From positions 65,454-129,453 of the forward strand of contig CAZMYU010000001.1 of assembly GCA_964570655.1 (NCBI GenBank): 64,000 nt of DNA, written 5' to 3'. Below are positions 13,734 to 51,371 of the stretch, piece by piece. Under the pieces are notes generated by a model that was given only the letters and a program-made list of their open reading frames with translations, made no database searches and was not told the origin of the DNA. Every line of letters starts with the position of its first letter. Within the stretch, counting starts at the first letter, position 1. The translations under genes and the position numbers were made by a program. The DNA comes from an uncultured Gammaproteobacteria bacterium (GTDB taxonomy: Bacteria > Patescibacteriota > Patescibacteriia > Patescibacteriales > UBA12465).

Positions 13734-13744
13734 AGAGTTTAAAT

Positions 13745-13887
13745 TTTATTTAGTGCTTGCACTGCTACCATACCCTTCTTCGCCAAAGGCTACGAAGGGC
13801 ACTACTTCGCTTCTCTAAGCGTAGTGATGTTATTCTAATTGAGTGCGTGCACTACGTAGCTCAACGCGTTAGCGTTGAGCGAAGTAG
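13745..13887 (-). repeat. GC-rich multi-hairpin 3' trailer of tRNA-Lys (copy 1 of trailer repeat)
   Basis: 13773-13825 is 53/53 identical to 14135-14187. 13842-13890 is 47/49 identical to 14203-14251. Hairpins include CTCAACGC/GCGTTGAG and GCCCTTC../..GAAGGGC. Confidence 0.85.
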
Positions 13888-13960
13888 TGCGTCCAGGAGG
13901 ATTCGAACCTCCGACCATCTCCTTAAGAGGGAGCAGCTCTACCAGCTGAGCTATGGACGC
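13888..13960 (-). tRNA. tRNA-Lys (anticodon CTT)
   Basis: Cloverleaf GCGTCCA..GCTCC-CTCTTAA-GGAGA..GGAGG-TTCGAAT-CCTCC-TGGACGC-A. No encoded CCA. Confidence 0.9.
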
Positions 13961-14056: not shown

Positions 14057-14248
14057 TCAATTATAATATTTTTATATAGTGCTTGCACTTCGTAGCTCAA
14101 CGCGCTAGCGTTGAGCGAAAACAACTAACTTCTGCCCTTCTTCGCCAAAGGCTACGAAGGGCACTACTTCGCTTCTCTAAGCGTAGTTACACTATTTTAA
14201 TTAGTGCGTGCACTTCGTAGCTCAACGCGCTAGCGTTGAGCGAAGTAG
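14057..14248 (-). repeat. GC-rich multi-hairpin spacer / 3' trailer of tRNA-Arg (copy 2 of trailer repeat, with an extra hairpin)
   Basis: Same unit as 13745-13887, plus an additional CTCAACGCGCTAGCGTTGAG hairpin (14086-14118). Confidence 0.85.
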
Positions 14249-14322
14249 TGCACCCAGCAGGATTTGAACCCACAACCTCTTGGTCCGAAGCCAAGCGCTC
14301 TATCCAGTTGAGCTATGAGTGC
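14249..14322 (-). tRNA. tRNA-Arg (anticodon TCG)
   Basis: GCACTCA..CTTGG-CTTCGGA-CCAAG..GTGGG-TTCAAAT-CCTGC-TGGGTGC-A. No encoded CCA. Confidence 0.9.
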
Positions 14323-16242: not shown

Positions 16243-16487
16243 TTTTTAGGAAGACGGCCAATATTAAAAAGCCTGCGATTTGTGTCTATAAATTTTATGT
16301 AAGAGAAATTTATTTTAAACAAAGGGGTTTCTTCCAGATTCCTAAAAACGGTCGTAATTAATTAATAAAACTAATATAAATAAATTTAGCACACTTTTTT
16401 TAGCTTGTAAAGTTAGCCAAAAAATCAACTATTCTTTACTTTTTTCGAATATTTAGTTAATATGGGTTTATGGTAATTGCCTGTGCG

Positions 16488-16515
16488 CCCTTCGACTCCC
16501 GTCGGTCGCTCAGGG
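16488..16515 (+). repeat. GC-rich leader motif CCCTTCGACTC-N8-CGCTCAGGG
   Basis: 28-nt motif upstream of tRNA-Val. A second copy at 51002-51029 has identical outer 11+9 nt. Confidence 0.7.
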
Positions 16516-16539
16516 CAAAAAATCGCGGAGCGATTTTTT

Positions 16540-35245: not shown

Positions 35246-35261
35246 AAAATTTTTGGTTATG

Positions 35262-35334
35262 AGCGGGTAAGGGGAATCGAACCCCTCTCTCCAGCTTGGA
35301 AGGCTAGCATAATAAACCACTATACGATACCCGC
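35262..35334 (-). tRNA. tRNA-Gly (anticodon TCC)
   Basis: GCGGGTA..CTAGC-CTTCCAA-GCTGG..AGGGG-TTCGATT-CCCCT-TACCCGC-T. Weak D-stem. No CCA. Confidence 0.85.
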
Positions 35335-35415
35335 TTTCATCCCGTTACACGGGACGAATTAAAAATTAATAATTAATAATTAAAAATTTCTAATTTTTCA
35401 TTGTTAATTGTTAAT

Positions 35416-35452
35416 TTCCTAATCGGCTTTTTATCAAAAGCCGATTAGGAAA
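35416..35452. other. Hairpin immediately 3' of tRNA-Leu
   Basis: CCTAATCGGCTTTT-tatc-AAAAGCCGATTAGG. Confidence 0.6.
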
Positions 35453-35454
35453 AG

Positions 35455-35538
35455 TGCCGCGGGAGGGAATCGAACCCTCACGATATCGCTATCACAGGAT
35501 TTTAAGTCCAGCGCGTCTACCAGTTCCGCCACCGCGGC
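35455..35538 (-). tRNA. tRNA-Leu (anticodon TAA), long variable arm
   Basis: GCCGCGG..CTGGA-CTTAAAA-TCCTG-(variable arm TGATAGCGATATCG)-GAGGG-TTCGATT-CCCTC-CCGCGGC-A. Confidence 0.9.
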
Positions 35539-35539
35539 C

Positions 35540-35601
35540 CACTTCGCCTCCGGCTTCGCGGGCCGGGGCCTTTCTTCACTTCGCCTCCGGCTTCGCGGGC
35601 C
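35540..35601 (-). repeat. 25-nt GC-rich direct repeat x2 abutting the tRNA-Leu 5' end
   Basis: CACTTCGCCTCCGGCTTCGCGGGCC at 35540-35564 and 35577-35601. Confidence 0.9.
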
Positions 35602-35613
35602 AAAGCATATCCA

Positions 35614-35859
35614 TTAAATATTTAACAAATGTTTTTTAGTAAAAGCGTAGCCAGAACTTGATTTTAAATAAGATTCAAATTTGTAAGCCAGGCTTATATT
35701 ATAAAAAACACAATACCACTTTAATTTATAGGGTCTCCGACTATTACAATATTTCGACAAACCAGCATTATGCTCCTGAATCCTTCTGATCAAATGATTG
35801 GTGACACCTATATATCGACTGCCATCCCTCCGACTCTCCAATATGTAAACATAATACAT
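35614..35859 (-). CDS. GIY-YIG nuclease family protein (81 aa)
   Basis: MYYVYILESRRDGSRYIGVTNHLIRRIQEHN.. is the canonical GIY..YIG..R..H.N pattern. Confidence 0.8.
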   Translation of the reverse strand: MYYVYILESRRDGSRYIGVTNHLIRRIQEHNAGLSKYCNSRRPYKLKWYCVFYNISLAYKFESYLKSSSGYAFTKKHLLNI

Positions 35860-35902
35860 ATTATTAGAAGAGGGGCTAATAAAAAATAATTAAATTATCT
35901 TG

Positions 35903-36006
35903 TTATTTTAATAATGTGTCCACCACTTCGCCTTTGTGATTCAGACTCTCATTATTTTAATAATGTGCTCGCACCGCGAAGCTCCGAGCTACTGCGAGGA
36001 GCGAAG
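35903..36006 (-). repeat. tmRNA 3' trailer with direct and inverted repeats
   Basis: TTATTTTAATAATGTG occurs twice (35903-35918, 35952-35967). TCCACCACTTCGC (35919-35931) is the exact reverse complement of 36001-36013, which includes the tmRNA 3' end. Confidence 0.85.
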
Positions 36007-36392
36007 TGGTGGAGATGATGGGATTTGAACCCATGTCTAATAAGATCAAAAAAATAGTTCTACAAAAAATAGTTCGATTTGATATTTAACGATTTTCTAG
36101 AAACCGAACAAAAGCGAAAATCGCTAGCCGACTTTGTTTAGATTTCAAAGAGTCAGCGCCCTTGAAATCGATCTCCATAAAATGACACCACTTTAGCTCT
36201 ATGGAGCCTCAGGCCAAGTGATGGTAGCGGCTATTTAAGCGGCTACGGTCGCCATGGCTGGAACCTTCCATGAGAAGGCCAACTTAGACGCAAAGTTTTT
36301 GACATTTTTCAATGTGGATCAGTTTTACGCGGATAATCCAGCGCGTTTTGCGTATTTTTTTGATGAACTCATTATCGAAACCTGTCATCCCC
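36007..36392 (-). ncRNA. ssrA: tmRNA (SsrA)
   Basis: 5' GGGGATGACAGGTTTCGA.. and 3' ..GGGTTCAAATCCCATCATCTCCACCA. Acceptor has G3:U70. Lies 61 nt downstream of smpB on the same strand. Confidence 0.88.
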
Positions 36393-36453: not shown

Positions 36454-36921
36454 CTAACGACCACTTTTAATTCTTCTTTGGATCTCTCTATTTACTTCTC
36501 GAGTCTTAATTGCTTCCCGTTTATCAGCCCTTTTCCGACCCTTGGCCAAACCAATTTCTAGCTTCAAAAAACTGTTTTTAGTATATATTTTCAACGGAAC
36601 CACTGTCAAGCCAGATTCCTGCGTTTTGCCTACTAAATAATTGATTTCTTTTTTGTTCAACAAGAGTCGCCGTGGATGATCTGGAATATAATCTACTAAA
36701 TGTCCCGCTGACTTATAAGGACTAATATAGGCTTTTATCAAATATGGAACCACTCCACCCTTTTCATTATAAAAACTAATATGCGCTTCTTTCAAACTAA
36801 TATGCCCACCTCGAATTGATTTGGCCTCATGCCCTTTTAAAACCAGGCCGGCTTCATAGGTTGCTAAGATTTCATAATTAAAAAAAGCTTTTCGATTGTC
36901 GGCTATGACTGAATGTTCCAT
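36454..36921 (-). CDS. smpB: SsrA-binding protein SmpB
   Basis: ..IADNRKAFFNYEILATYEAGLVLKGHEAKSIR.., basic C-terminal tail. Confidence 0.95.
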   Translation of the reverse strand: MEHSVIADNRKAFFNYEILATYEAGLVLKGHEAKSIRGGHISLKEAHISFYNEKGGVVPYLIKAYISPYKSAGHLVDYIPDHPRRLLLNKKEINYLVGKTQESGLTVVPLKIYTKNSFLKLEIGLAKGRKRADKREAIKTREVNREIQRRIKSGR

Positions 36922-38216: not shown

Positions 38217-38359
38217 GACGCCTTAGGAATGTTGGACCAAAAACCATAGCGGATGAGCCCGGCACGGTCCCCCAGAGGGGGCGGGCGAAGGAGCTTTGAG
38301 TGGCCCGAAGTCGCTGGACGAAGGGCCACGTGTTTTTGGGGCAATATTCCTAAGGCGTC
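38217..38359. other. 143-nt GC-rich long hairpin element (structured RNA or MITE-like repeat; unknown)
   Basis: GACGCCTTAGGAAT (38217-38230) pairs with ATTCCTAAGGCGTC (38346-38359). Also paired: CCAAAAAC/GTTTTTGG, and internal hairpins CCCCC-aga-GGGGG and GTGGCCC..GGGCCAC. Confidence 0.7.
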
Positions 38360-50927: not shown

Positions 50928-51001
50928 GGGGATATAGCTCAGTTGGTTAGAGCGCCGGCTTTGCAAGCCGGAGGCCGTCGGTTCGAACCCGACTATCTCC
51001 A
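50928..51001 (+). tRNA. tRNA-Ala (anticodon TGC)
   Basis: GGGGATA (G3:U70)..CCGGC-TTTGCAA-GCCGG..GTCGG-TTCGAAC-CCGAC-TATCTCC-A. Leader hairpin CCCAAACC/GGTTTGGG at 50902-50923. Confidence 0.92.
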
Positions 51002-51103
51002 CCCTTCGACTCGCTTCGCTCGCTCAGGGTGTCCCACCCCCAAGATAGCGAGGCGAAGGCCCTGAGCGAAGTGAGGTCGTAAGACCGAACGGAGTCGAAT
51101 GGG
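51002..51103 (+). repeat. GC-rich structured trailer element between tRNA-Ala and GIY-YIG gene
   Basis: CCCTTCGACTC (51002-51012) pairs with GAGTCGAATGGG (51092-51103). CGCTCAGGG (51021-51029) pairs with CCCTGAGCG (51060-51068). Shares its 5' 28 nt with 16488-16515. Confidence 0.7.
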
Positions 51104-51125
51104 TTTAGATATTAAATATTCTTTA

Positions 51126-51371
51126 ATGAAATATTTTTTCTATTTAGCTCGTTGTGGTGACGGCTCCCTTTACACCGGATCATGTGAAAACATCAAAGCC
51201 AGAGAAAAAAGACATAACCAGGGCGATGGAGCAAAATTCACCAAATATAGATTACCAGTAAAAATTATTTATTTTGAGGTTTTTAATACCTTGGTTGAGG
51301 CTAGAAGAAGAGAAGCTCAAATTAAAAAGTGGCGACGGGATAAAAAGGAAAGACTTATAAAAATGAATTAA
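51126..51371 (+). CDS. GIY-YIG nuclease family protein (81 aa)
   Basis: MKYFFYLARCGDGSLYTGSCENIKAREKRHNQG.. Start moved to the ATG at 51126; the track start at 51099 lies inside the GC-rich element. Confidence 0.8.
   Translation: MKYFFYLARCGDGSLYTGSCENIKAREKRHNQGDGAKFTKYRLPVKIIYFEVFNTLVEARRREAQIKKWRRDKKERLIKMN

Follow-up and report, generated by a model that had tools for sequence, protein, structure and literature searches.

The Seg family of phage T4 consists of free-standing GIY-YIG homing endonuclease genes, and SegB lies within the T4 tRNA gene cluster (PMC2330249). The mini-element described here resembles the Seg genes in placing a GIY-YIG gene between tRNA genes, without any intron, and in its selfish-type presence or absence among relatives. 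However, Seg proteins are phage-borne and reach ~200 aa with a DNA-binding domain, whereas the mini-element is chromosomal in CPR bacteria, starts at a tRNA 3′ end, carries a conserved structured leader and encodes a protein of 79–81 aa, i.e., a catalytic domain only, from which the long-target DNA-binding domain of homing endonucleases is absent. This minimal domain is held in common with the UPF0213/YhbQ and prokaryotic stand-alone Slx1-like proteins (PDB 1ZG2 and 1YWL; PMC1564403), for which neither a function has been assigned nor a genomic context described, whereas the CPR subfamily displays its own C-terminal motif (YLKSSSGYAF.KK) and a tRNA-3′-end/leader context. The mini-element shares with integrase islands the insertion at a tRNA-like 3′ end, the supply of a replacement 3′ end, a downstream 3′-end fragment (in several relatives) and tandem arrays, but it has no recombinase, measures ~0.36 kb instead of kilobases, and its repeats vary from 9 to 24 or more nt, as expected for homology-driven and not site-specific recombination. 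As with REP/BIME-RAYT or MITE repeats, GC-rich hairpins occur in multiple intergenic copies within an AT-rich genome, including ORF-less copies; unlike these repeats, attachment to the tRNA 3′ end and co-orientation are strict, the nuclease is of the GIY-YIG and not the Y1 transposase type, and there is no TIR/TSD pattern. Finally, T-box leaders recognise the tRNA 3′-NCCA end through UGGN, and the leader sequence AGUGGUG.CCCGCG resembles the T-box consensus GGGUGGUACCGCG and pairs with the ..ACCA end, but the leader pairs in cis, with the tRNA next to it, the pairing runs into the trailer, and there is no terminator/antiterminator design.

In the window (the whole 64-kb stretch that was analysed), the run smpB-tmRNA-tRNA-Leu-tRNA-Gly-infC is interrupted by 468 nt between tmRNA and tRNA-Leu (Table 1), whereas these two genes are only 3–17 nt apart in seven relatives (L002, L003, L004, L006, L007, L009 and L014), with the downstream tRNA-Gly-infC synteny confirmed in four of them (L003, L004, L006 and L007). 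The segment is thus an insertion, as the initial annotation had proposed, although its limits (given there as 35550–35933) have to be moved, since the inserted DNA is bounded by the tmRNA discriminator/CCA (36006/36009) on one side and by the 5′ end of tRNA-Leu (35539) on the other. Presence and absence at a conserved site, as for homing genes, were observed at the level of ~60% SmpB identity only, which is that of the genomes with the nearest empty sites; no strain-level polymorphism was found, the sole contig with an identical SmpB being 971 bp long and too short to inform. In addition, tmRNA-linked copies are patchy over CPR lineages (L011, L013, L028, L060 and L069). CCA is not encoded in the tmRNA genes of the relatives, and the CCA of the window tmRNA (36007–36009) probably stems from the element; the final UCCACCA of this tmRNA (7 nt) takes part in the leader closing stem.

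Table 1. Features of the inserted locus and of the further element copies in the 64-kb window
Feature	Position	Strand	Remarks
tmRNA gene	36007..36392	-	Rfam RF00023 130.5 bits, full length; ARAGORN
smpB	36454-36921		
tRNA-Leu(taa)	35454..35538	-	right-hand neighbour of the insertion
tRNA-Gly	35261-35334		infC is the next member of the run
Whole inserted segment	35539..36006	-	468 nt, tmRNA to tRNA-Leu; 3–17 nt in relatives
ORF1	35614..35859	-	predicted 81-aa minimal GIY-YIG (Slx1/UPF0213-type) nuclease
Leader module A	35918..36013	-	P1 5′ arm, P2 hairpin, conserved GCUUCGCGG-UGCGAGCAC core, AT-rich loop, P1 3′ arm
P1 5′ arm (a)	36001..36013	-	tmRNA UCCACCA + CUUCGC; perfect 13-nt inverted repeat
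P1 3′ arm (a′)	35919..35933	-	AGGCGAAGUGGUGGA; holds the 11-mer copy 35923-35933
P2 hairpin	35981..36002	-	GCUCCUCGCAGUAGCUCGGAGC
Single-stranded core	35965..35982	-	GCUUCGCGG-UGCGAGCAC (b + GUGCNNGCAC), nearly invariant; conserved columns of alignment A2
AT-rich spacer 5′ of ORF1	35860..35918	-	second 21-nt repeat copy lies here
First P3-like module (b′-a″)	35577..35601	-	GGCCCGCGAAGCCGGAGGCGAAGUG; holds the near-copy of the 11-mer; 25-nt direct repeat
Second P3-like module	35540..35564	-	adjoins the tRNA-Leu 5′ end; holds the 11-mer copy 35539-35549
Complete ORF-less leader copy (P1-P2-core-P3)	14134..14252	-	directly after tRNA-Arg(tcg); R1 95.2 bits, E 2.6e-22; z -5.81
Complete ORF-less leader copy	13772..13891	-	directly after tRNA-Lys(ctt); R1 90 bits
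Partial copy (P2-core-AT-rich)	14059..14116	-	just 5′ of tRNA-Met; R1 30.5 bits, model positions 12–69
Second, type-2 element	51002..51371	+	leader after tRNA-Ala(tgc), then GIY-YIG ORF2 (51126-51371)

ORF1 remains the sole ORF with a family match in the insert, and both this ORF and ORF2 exceed the PF01541 cut-off of 22.6 bits (56.8 bits, E 2.8e-15 and 56.0 bits, E 5e-15, respectively). The catalytic residues Tyr5, Tyr16, Arg26, His30/Asn31 and Glu62 are kept in ORF1 and align to UPF0213 and SLX1 in the PDB profile matches; none of Y5, Y16, R26, N31 and E62 varies over 32 family members including ORF1, and H30 reaches at least 90% conservation. The AlphaFold model (pLDDT 86.5) displays an E-E-H-E-H-H topology, 1ZG2 is the best sequence match among PDB profiles (E 1.7e-11), and the top Foldseek folds are 1ZG2, Slx1 (TM 0.6–0.7) and HIGLE, I-TevI being weaker (0.52). 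The ORF1 product is therefore predicted, from sequence and modelled structure, to be a minimal nuclease of the Slx1/UPF0213 type, closer to these proteins than to I-TevI. Note that such a catalytic-domain-only protein of 79 aa has no part that would explain specificity for ..CCACCA, which counts against a mobile-element reading.

Homologs of ORF1 (151, typically ~79 aa, with identities of 56–73% among the matches listed) are mostly tRNA-adjacent, as the initial annotation had asked of GIY-YIG paralogs: this holds for both ORFs of the window, ORF2 starting 122 nt past tRNA-Ala (50928–51003), and for most of the ~70 homologous loci examined. Indeed, a same-strand tRNA or tmRNA called by ARAGORN ends 93–250 nt 5′ of the ORF in 44 of 73 loci, a strict geometry of T-arm, acceptor and NCCA precedes 48 of 60 unique leaders, and the leader begins directly past the discriminator/CCA of tRNA-Ala or tmRNA in at least 48 of these 60. 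The great majority of targets are tRNA-Ala genes, with all three anticodons represented, or tmRNA genes; UCCACCA is their common 3′ end, and the 3′ ends preceding the leaders were mainly GTCCACCA (30 cases) and CTCCACCA (14 cases). CCA follows 29 of 33 element-linked tRNAs vs ~11 of 37 other tRNAs. Displaced copies of the tRNA/tmRNA 3′ end were detected past the ORF in L173, L176, L164, L153, L143 and L136, followed in the first two by a terminator-like hairpin and a T run; a tandem unit occurs in L136, its ORF being truncated, and leaders stand in tandem in L137 and L167. The stop codon may lie only 9–19 nt from the next tRNA (e.g., L160, L185 and L156). Phage cargo and a defence system were both rejected, as IMG/VR gave only five distant relatives (42–45% identity) and PADLOC no match; NCBIfam holds no model for the family.

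The canonical unit of ~360 nt, found in the closest homolog of ORF1 (L178), has the same orientation as the tRNA-like gene and starts directly past the discriminator base with CCA-CUUCGC. Its structured leader (~120 nt) precedes the homologous 79-aa GIY-YIG genes in more than 60 independent Patescibacteria loci and consists, in order, of the closing stem P1, a variable hairpin P2, a near-invariant core (GCUUCGCGG-UGCNNGCAC), an AT-rich stretch and the hairpin P3, in which a G.U pair is conserved and the internal loop is of the tandem G.A type. The P1 3′ arm GCGAAGUGGUG is complementary to the last 2–4 nt of the tRNA plus CCA and CUUCGC, and it fits the tRNA end of each host (UGGA for tmRNA, UGA for tRNA-Glu, UGC for tRNA-Arg and tRNA-Lys). 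P1 pairing was maintained in 97.5% of cells over 31 leaders, with CCA/UGG, CUA/UAG, CUC/GAG and CUU/AAG covariation, and P2 in 96.8% of cells with compensatory changes in four of five pairs (alignment A2), this covariation being drawn from related sequences and tracing in part to three lineages. Conformation I was 87% paired vs 34–49% in slid controls, with double changes in 14 pairs, and on four of five measures it was unmatched by any of 500 shuffles. The fold is strand-specific, since 27 of 31 leaders have the G127.U148 pair, and scores of 25–30 bits for the antisense strand fall far below the 90–118 bits for sense. As in structured RNAs, helices with compensatory changes thus go together with strand specificity. 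The 5′ strand of P3 is an alternative partner of core b, and the functional fold is ambiguous because the alternative pairings (a:a″ and b:b′) have about as much support as P1/P3. An H-type pseudoknot combining a:a′ and b:b′ appeared sterically implausible, with 0–1 nt crossing an 11-bp stem, and these pairings were therefore treated as alternative folds. Against Rfam 15, which includes T-boxes and self-cleaving ribozymes, only tRNA and tmRNA were matched, at the gathering score as well as at E up to 5–10, and a T-box or known ribozyme was consequently rejected despite the resemblance to the T-box consensus. Two further candidates were discarded, namely a −35 box at GUGCNNGCAC of the core together with a −10 in the AT-rich loop, as their spacing differs between loci, and an intrinsic terminator at P3, as this hairpin is not consistently followed by a U-tract.

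The copy in the window is atypical in that ORF1 and its AT-rich upstream region have the P1 3′ arm on one side and a duplicated pair of P3 modules on the other. Module A scores 70.9 bits (E 3.7e-16) with the covariance model R1, 26 model positions corresponding to P3 being deleted, and it folds with an MFE of −38.6 kcal/mol (z −4.27); the canonical P3 is absent from its usual position. The first P3-like module fits the P3 consensus cCCCGCGaAGC..GCGaAGUGGGgC, the second gave a P3-only match to R1 (35536–35567, 16.3 bits, E 0.021), and folding of the two together was not significant (z −1.57). None of 76 other loci places P3 after the ORF in this way, and P3 or a′ motifs did not emerge as a general right end 3′ of the ORF in these loci, bar scattered cases in L143, L164 and L060. 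The window copy contains no displaced tmRNA 3′ end. The spacer 5′ of ORF1 holds one sigma-70-like match (TGGACA-17-GATAAT), within chance expectation and thus rejected as a promoter.

Beyond this locus, the trailers of tRNA-Arg and tRNA-Lys are 87% identical overall (~93% by estimate for the element part) vs 65% for the tRNAs, and the two ORF-less copies are therefore far more alike than the tRNAs themselves. The type-2 leader has the closing stem CCC-UUCGACUC ... GAGUCGAAUGGG, folds with an MFE of −51.2 (z −5.33; 51000–51110), and also follows tRNA-Ile, tRNA-Tyr and tmRNA in L185, L186 and L013. ORF2 represents a second GIY-YIG subfamily with an analogous leader, likewise at tRNA 3′ ends.

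Altogether, we interpret 35539–36006, with a probability of roughly 0.7, as the rearranged copy of a selfish mobile mini-element that is widespread in the ultra-small Patescibacteria/CPR and apparently undescribed. Sequence comparison establishes the segment as a derived copy of a mini-element family common in these bacteria, and we infer that the mini-element is selfish and mobile, since ORF-less copies after tRNA-Arg and tRNA-Lys, displaced 3′-end copies, and tandem or decayed copies all indicate mobility. The nuclease, probably structure-specific like Slx1, would break DNA at or near the 3′ end of a tRNA gene, and repair or recombination would then draw on the tRNA-3′-end homology beside the donor copy, which would restore the tRNA gene, supply CCA and leave a displaced 3′-end fragment downstream. 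The leader may work as RNA on the tRNA co-transcript, where P1 would sequester the 3′ end and the trailer with the tRNA still releasable, and it may keep nuclease expression low, while ORF-less copies would be decayed or non-autonomous derivatives.

An unlikely competitor is a non-mobile, lineage-specific 3′-trailer structure (for processing or termination) together with a domesticated housekeeping GIY-YIG nuclease, e.g., for RNA processing or repair, co-expressed with tRNA-Ala/tmRNA. The element is always contiguous and co-oriented with the tRNA, P1 is formed with the 3′ end of the tRNA itself, and the protein is under strong constraint, all of which also fit a host-beneficial role; moreover, ORF-less copies are well conserved, and a 2006 survey reported a prokaryotic Slx1-like domain fused to a tRNA methyltransferase, hinting at RNA metabolism (PMC1564403). 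In contrast, the patchy distribution even between close lineages, the identical type of unit at different tRNAs, the tandem and truncated copies with displaced 3′-end fragments, and the several copies and two subfamilies in a single 64-kb window argue against it. In addition, the ORF need not share the tRNA transcript, because some copies have TATAAT 6–7 nt before the ATG.

It is considerably less probable that the leader, as RNA or single-stranded DNA, pairs through GCGAAGUGGUG(GA) with tRNA-Ala/tmRNA 3′ ends and directs the nuclease or the insertion, by analogy with IS200/IS605 guide pairing and IS110 bridge RNAs. Such guidance would suit an arm complementary to the host-specific tRNA end, a protein without any DNA-binding domain, and a bistable fold in which a′ is unpaired in one form, but only 5–7 nt would match an empty target, because the complementarity spans the tRNA end and the element's own CUUCGC, and we know of no precedent for a guided GIY-YIG enzyme.

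The initial annotation had read the locus as a ~375-bp nuclease cassette inserted with an 11-bp target-site duplication (CCACTTCGCCT), which we consider very improbable. Two exact copies (35539–35549 and 35923–35933) and one with a single mismatch (35576–35586) indeed flank ORF1 within a region that is inserted relative to relatives, the number is above chance (expectation 0.69, three being reached in 1 of 100 shuffles), and no further match occurs elsewhere in the 64 kb on either strand. However, on the minus strand the 11-mer corresponds to the conserved leader motif GCGAAGTGG, which forms the 3′ arms of P1 (a′) and P3 (a″) and lies inside the leader at more than 60 independent loci of Patescibacteria; both copies are found there 5′ of the ORF, ~20 nt apart, and not on its two sides, an arrangement seen at no other locus. 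The 11-mers also belong to longer repeats, namely a 25-nt perfect direct repeat CACTTCGCCTCCGGCTTCGCGGGCC (35540–35564 and 35577–35601), which contains both copies near tRNA-Leu, and a perfect 13-nt inverted repeat (35919–35931 and 36001–36013), with the copy at 35923 as one arm and, as the other, the terminal UCCACCA of the tmRNA (7 nt) followed by 6 nt of trailer. A further repeat, AT-rich and 21 nt long, occupies 35898–35918 and 35947–35967. Moreover, CCACTTCGCCT is absent from the empty sites of relatives, where a transposon-type duplication would have a single copy, and GIY-YIG homing, to our knowledge, generates no such duplications. The true flanking duplications in relatives are 9–24 or more nt copies of the tRNA/tmRNA 3′ end, found around the element as direct repeats in six related loci and lacking in the window copy. 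The 11-nt repeats are thus stem arms of a conserved leader and not insertion scars, and the location of the ORF between the P1 3′ arm and the duplicated P3 modules accounts for GCGAAGUGG on both of its sides. The initial reading was therefore half right: a small nuclease-bearing element was inserted, but the 11-mers do not mark its boundaries. A decayed remnant of a larger integrase-type island at the tmRNA 3′ end can hardly be the explanation, since, although tmRNA 3′ ends are classic integration sites, L010 has a duplicated tmRNA 3′ end without the element and some relatives show att-like repeats, neither an integrase nor any other gene is present within the 468 nt, and the compact leader-plus-ORF unit of ~360 nt recurs at dozens of loci, wedged between tRNA genes.

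The leader and its tRNA-3′-end association are apparently undescribed, as neither Rfam nor the literature searched contains them; a full-text search found no description of an association of GIY-YIG gene, leader and tRNA 3′ end. No function is known for the widespread stand-alone GIY-YIG proteins (UPF0213/YhbQ/Slx1-like), a large subfamily of which is now given a rigid context, i.e., the exact 3′ end of tRNA-Ala/tmRNA genes together with a leader that is conserved and covaries. This leader would constitute a new RNA class, should it prove to be a sensor or guide for tRNA 3′ ends or a signal for their processing. We hold it doubtful, as a more speculative proposal, that this RNA class reads the tRNA-Ala/tmRNA 3′ end via GCGAAGUGGUG(GA) and forms with the Slx1-like nuclease a structure- or RNA-guided system for insertion or processing at tRNA-gene 3′ ends, which, if true, would provide the first mechanistic context for the long-orphan UPF0213/YhbQ-type proteins. 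For annotation, GC-rich repeats near tRNAs in such genomes should be taken as parts of the element and not as insertion scars. If mobile, the ~360-nt unit would be among the smallest autonomous-looking elements known; it would have a major part in shaping the tRNA loci of Patescibacteria, whose genomes are reduced, and could confound tRNA/tmRNA annotation there.

Within the AT-rich window (38.8% GC), tig, smpB, the tmRNA, an 81-aa GIY-YIG gene (ORF1), tRNA-Leu(taa), tRNA-Gly, infC, rpmI and rplT follow each other in this order on the minus strand, and a second GIY-YIG gene (ORF2) lies elsewhere. Both GIY-YIG ORFs and the copies of an 11-mer reported by the initial annotation were found again by the PF01541 model and by repeat search. 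Its proposal to look for empty sites was borne out using SmpB-anchored loci from 80 species-representative genomes (best match 61% identical; several of the closest labeled Candidatus Falkowbacteria): the gap between tmRNA and tRNA-Leu(taa) is only 3-17 nt in seven relatives versus 468 nt in the window, which indicates an insertion in the window. In six of these seven relatives tRNA-Gly(tcc) comes next, followed by infC in L003, L004, L006 and L007 (L numbers denote loci fetched from other genomes or metagenomes). The window tmRNA encodes CCA, whereas the tmRNA genes of the short-gap relatives do not, and it still looks intact with the insertion adjoining its 3′ end. The tag peptide given by ARAGORN, ATITWPEAP*, is wrong; the tag is read in frame 2 as (V)KNFASKLAFSWKVPAMATVAA*, in agreement with relatives such as L007 (VKNTFAKAAFSWKVPAMATVAA*). 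The perfect hairpin immediately past tRNA-Leu probably serves the tmRNA-tRNA-Leu unit as a terminator or processing stem. In another relative, L010, the 339-nt tmRNA-tRNA-Leu spacer (2475-2813) holds a second tmRNA 3′-end copy, CCTTCAACTCCCCTCATCTCCAC, and neither a GIY-YIG gene nor the leader described below; this copy looks like an att-like scar of a different or lost insertion.

Features of the window and their coordinates
Feature	Position	Strand	Remark
smpB	36454-36921	-	
tmRNA	36392-36007	-	Rfam 130.5 bits
ORF1, 81 aa	35859-35614	-	PF01541 GIY-YIG, E 2.8e-15
tRNA-Leu(taa)	35538-35454	-	
ORF2	51126-51371	+	PF01541 GIY-YIG, E 5e-15; starts 122 nt past tRNA-Ala
11-mer CCACTTCGCCT, exact	35539-35549; 35923-35933		
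11-mer, one mismatch	35576-35586		
25-nt perfect direct repeat	35540-35564; 35577-35601		repeat finder
13-nt perfect inverted repeat	35919-35931; 36001-36013		repeat finder
Duplicated 21-mer	35898-35918; 35947-35967		
17-bp perfect AT-rich hairpin	35415-35452		TTTCCTAATCGGCTTTT / AAAAGCCGATTAGGAAA
Solo GUGCAAGCAC modules	13740-13775; 14059-14100	-	
Fragment just before tRNA-Val	16460-16539	+	
GC-rich intergenic element	38225-38350		between tig and its upstream gene; core ~69% GC

ORF1 has 151 homologs, typically of ~79 aa and 56-73% identical, whose named sources are Patescibacteria or unclassified bacteria; a metagenome scan provided 80 further loci. The gene forms an element of ~360 nt with a structured leader of ~120 nt that separates it from a tRNA or tmRNA 3′ end. 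Indeed, ARAGORN placed a same-strand tRNA or tmRNA end 93-250 nt before the ATG in 44 of the 73 loci with sufficient upstream sequence, and a strict T-arm, acceptor and NCCA geometry precedes 48 of 60 unique leaders (a looser form, 4 more). These 3′ ends are mostly GTCCACCA (tRNA-Ala, 30) and CTCCACCA (tmRNA, 14), with Tyr, Glu and Gly rare. In RNA sense, the consensus reads [..UCCA]CCA-CUUCGC (arm a), the P2 hairpin, GCUUCGCGG (b), UGCNNGCAC, an AT-rich stretch of 25-60 nt, GCGAAGUGGUG (a′), YCCCGCGNAGC (b′), a loop, GCGRAGUGGGRC (a″) and, after 3-20 nt, AUG. The same architecture follows the tmRNA of L011, where the GIY-YIG gene behind it shares 58% identity with ORF1, and occurs ORF-less past tRNA-Arg and tRNA-Lys in the window. 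Our literature search found no description of this association of leader, GIY-YIG gene and tRNA 3′ end.

The 11-mers had been read as a possible target-site duplication around the nuclease cassette; their re-reading as parts of a conserved element is secure. On the minus strand the 11-mer is AGGCGAAGUGG, i.e., leader arms a′ and a″, which both lie upstream of the ORF, ~20 nt apart, in every locus except the window; a P3 module 3′ of the ORF was found in 0 of 76 loci examined, and the closest ORF1 homolog (L178, 73% identity) has the canonical layout. No other copy of the 11-mer was found in the window, where chance expects 0.69 copies and three were reached in 1 of 100 shuffles. Both copies near tRNA-Leu belong to the 25-nt direct repeat, and the third is an arm of the 13-nt inverted repeat, whose partner arm is the tmRNA UCCACCA plus six trailer bases. 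The window copy is rearranged, since ORF1 lies between the a′ and P3 modules while other loci have both motif copies 5′ of the ORF. Removal of 35602-35918 would give back the canonical a′-b′-loop-a″, and the duplicated 21-mer and P3 suggest that element copies recombined with each other.

The leader structure was assessed on a MAFFT alignment of 31 sequences. Fold I (P1, a:a′; P2; P3, b′:a″) is 87% paired versus 34-49% for slid registers, with 14 pairs changed on both sides, and for four of the five measures all 500 shuffles stayed below the observed values. P2 is always paired but sequence-free. P1 covaries at the CCA triplet (CCA/UGG, CUA/UAG, CUC/GAG, CUU/AAG), and its 3′ arm tracks the host tRNA end: UGGA for tmRNA, UGA for tRNA-Glu, UGC for tRNA-Arg and tRNA-Lys. 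In P3, a G.U pair is kept in 27 of 31 sequences, and the internal loop (G.A / N.R / A.G) switches in step between G.A and A.C at position 129:146. An alternative fold II (a:a″ plus b:b′) reaches 94% pairing, and the RNAfold choice varies by sequence. The leader looks bistable, unless only one of the two is the true fold. The G.U pairs and the low antisense scores of the leader covariance model (25-30 bits versus 90-118 bits sense) favor a structure of the sense strand, as RNA or single-stranded DNA, over a symmetric duplex-DNA site. Folding z-scores were -4.27 for the tmRNA trailer, -5.81 for the tRNA-Arg trailer and -5.33 for the ORF2-type leader past tRNA-Ala; the two P3 modules adjoining tRNA-Leu, folded on their own, were not significant (z -1.57). 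No Rfam 15 family matched the leader even at E up to 5-10.

The core motif GUGCAAGCAC with its AT-rich stretch also stands alone at two places in the window, directly before hsp20 and tRNA-Met, and in L069 (4885-4935), directly before infC. Such a solo copy might serve as a portable promoter-like module, though the spacing to -10-like boxes is inconsistent. TATAAT stands 6-7 nt before the GIY-YIG start codon in L143, L152, L158, L166, L170, L171, L173, L174 and L176, mostly tmRNA-linked, and this short distance suggests leaderless mRNAs; other copies leave only 2-10 nt before the start codon and carry GGAG inside P3 instead; two expression modes may exist. The GC-rich intergenic element is strongly structured (MFE -62.5, z -5.75 on the plus strand; -52.2, z -4.41 on the minus strand), contains a P3-like hairpin, GGCCCGAAGUCGCUGGACGAAGGGCC, and matched no Rfam family at E up to 1.

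The mobility of the element is well supported, albeit indirectly. In the window, the covariance model detects no more than three full or near-full copies, each directly behind a tRNA-like gene, plus a partial one before tRNA-Met; identity is 87% over 129 nt between the tRNA-Arg and tRNA-Lys copies versus 65% between the two tRNAs. Presence is patchy, since in the SmpB loci, 589 kb in total, the sole matches of the model are in L011 and, truncated, in L069. Six loci have, 3′ of the ORF, a copy of the tRNA or tmRNA 3′ end (9-17+ identical bases, up to ~24-35 nt with mismatches). In L173 and L176 a hairpin resembling a terminator and a T run come next and probably represent the terminator that the gene had originally. 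L136 shows the order tRNA-Tyr, leader, ORF, 16-nt tRNA-Tyr 3′-end copy, second leader and truncated ORF (MYYVYIL...); leaders are in tandem in L137 and L167, and a new leader begins past the stop codon in L109 and L164. Of 33 element-linked tRNAs, 29 have CCA behind the discriminator, versus only about 11 of 37 other tRNAs of the same loci; a substitute 3′ end, CCA included, appears to come with the element. Because repeat length is variable and a recombinase is lacking, insertion would be homology-driven (Campbell-like or break-repair) rather than site-specific recombination or transposition. In the first 40 nt past the ORF stop of three loci only (L143, L168, L164), GCGAAG(C/T)G-UCCC precedes the displaced tmRNA 3′ fragment; its resemblance to the leader a′-b′ junction hints that it marks where the right-hand junction forms.

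ORF2, 31% identical to ORF1, represents a type-2 subfamily that follows the same logic with a leader of its own, CC(N)-UUCGA(C/U)UC ... closing on ..UCGAA-N-GG. Its hosts are tRNA-Ala (window), tRNA-Ile (L185, with ~10 nt between the GIY-YIG stop codon and the next tRNA), tRNA-Tyr (L186) and tmRNA (L013). The L186 tRNA-Thr/tRNA-Tyr/tRNA-Trp cluster (476-1665) has a different GIY-YIG gene in each spacer (103 and 87 aa) and a pseudo tRNA-Tyr 5′ half upstream of the first. Just before tRNA-Val in the window, a fragment like the tRNA-Val 5′ end (GGGTTTATGG...) is followed by a partial type-2 motif (CCCTTCGACTC..GCTCAGGGC) and a AAAAAATCGC/GCGATTTTTT hairpin; the arrangement resembles a type-2 element in decay or the scar of a rearrangement.

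In the ORF1 family, Y5, Y16, R26, N31, E62 and the family-specific C-terminal motif YLKSSSGYAF.KK are invariant, and H30 is at least 90% conserved. The AlphaFold model (pLDDT 86.5) best matches UPF0213 BH0048 (1ZG2), Slx1 (TM 0.63-0.71) and HIGLE, with I-TevI lower (TM 0.52), and sequence profiles rank these relatives in the same order. The family falls in the stand-alone Slx1-like group, which Dunin-Horkawicz et al. considered to be the minimal and ancestral form of GIY-YIG (PMC1564403). ORF1 matched no PADLOC or NCBIfam model, gave only a weak GIY-YIG match in PHROG and has only distant relatives in IMG/VR. As the family is devoid of a DNA-binding domain, one would not expect it to home sequence-specifically in the manner of I-TevI or Seg, and by analogy the more natural guess is that the nuclease would act structure-specifically, as Slx1 does.

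Altogether, the family identification is secure, while for the mechanism we infer both the nuclease target and the role of the leader. The insertion geometry is that of tRNA/tmRNA 3′-end islands, from which the element differs by lacking a recombinase, as it differs from free-standing GIY-YIG homing genes by lacking a DNA-binding domain and from both by its conserved structured leader. In its behavior it comes nearest to selfish GIY-YIG genes of the free-standing kind, the closest precedent being T4 SegB, located in a tRNA cluster (PMC2330249).
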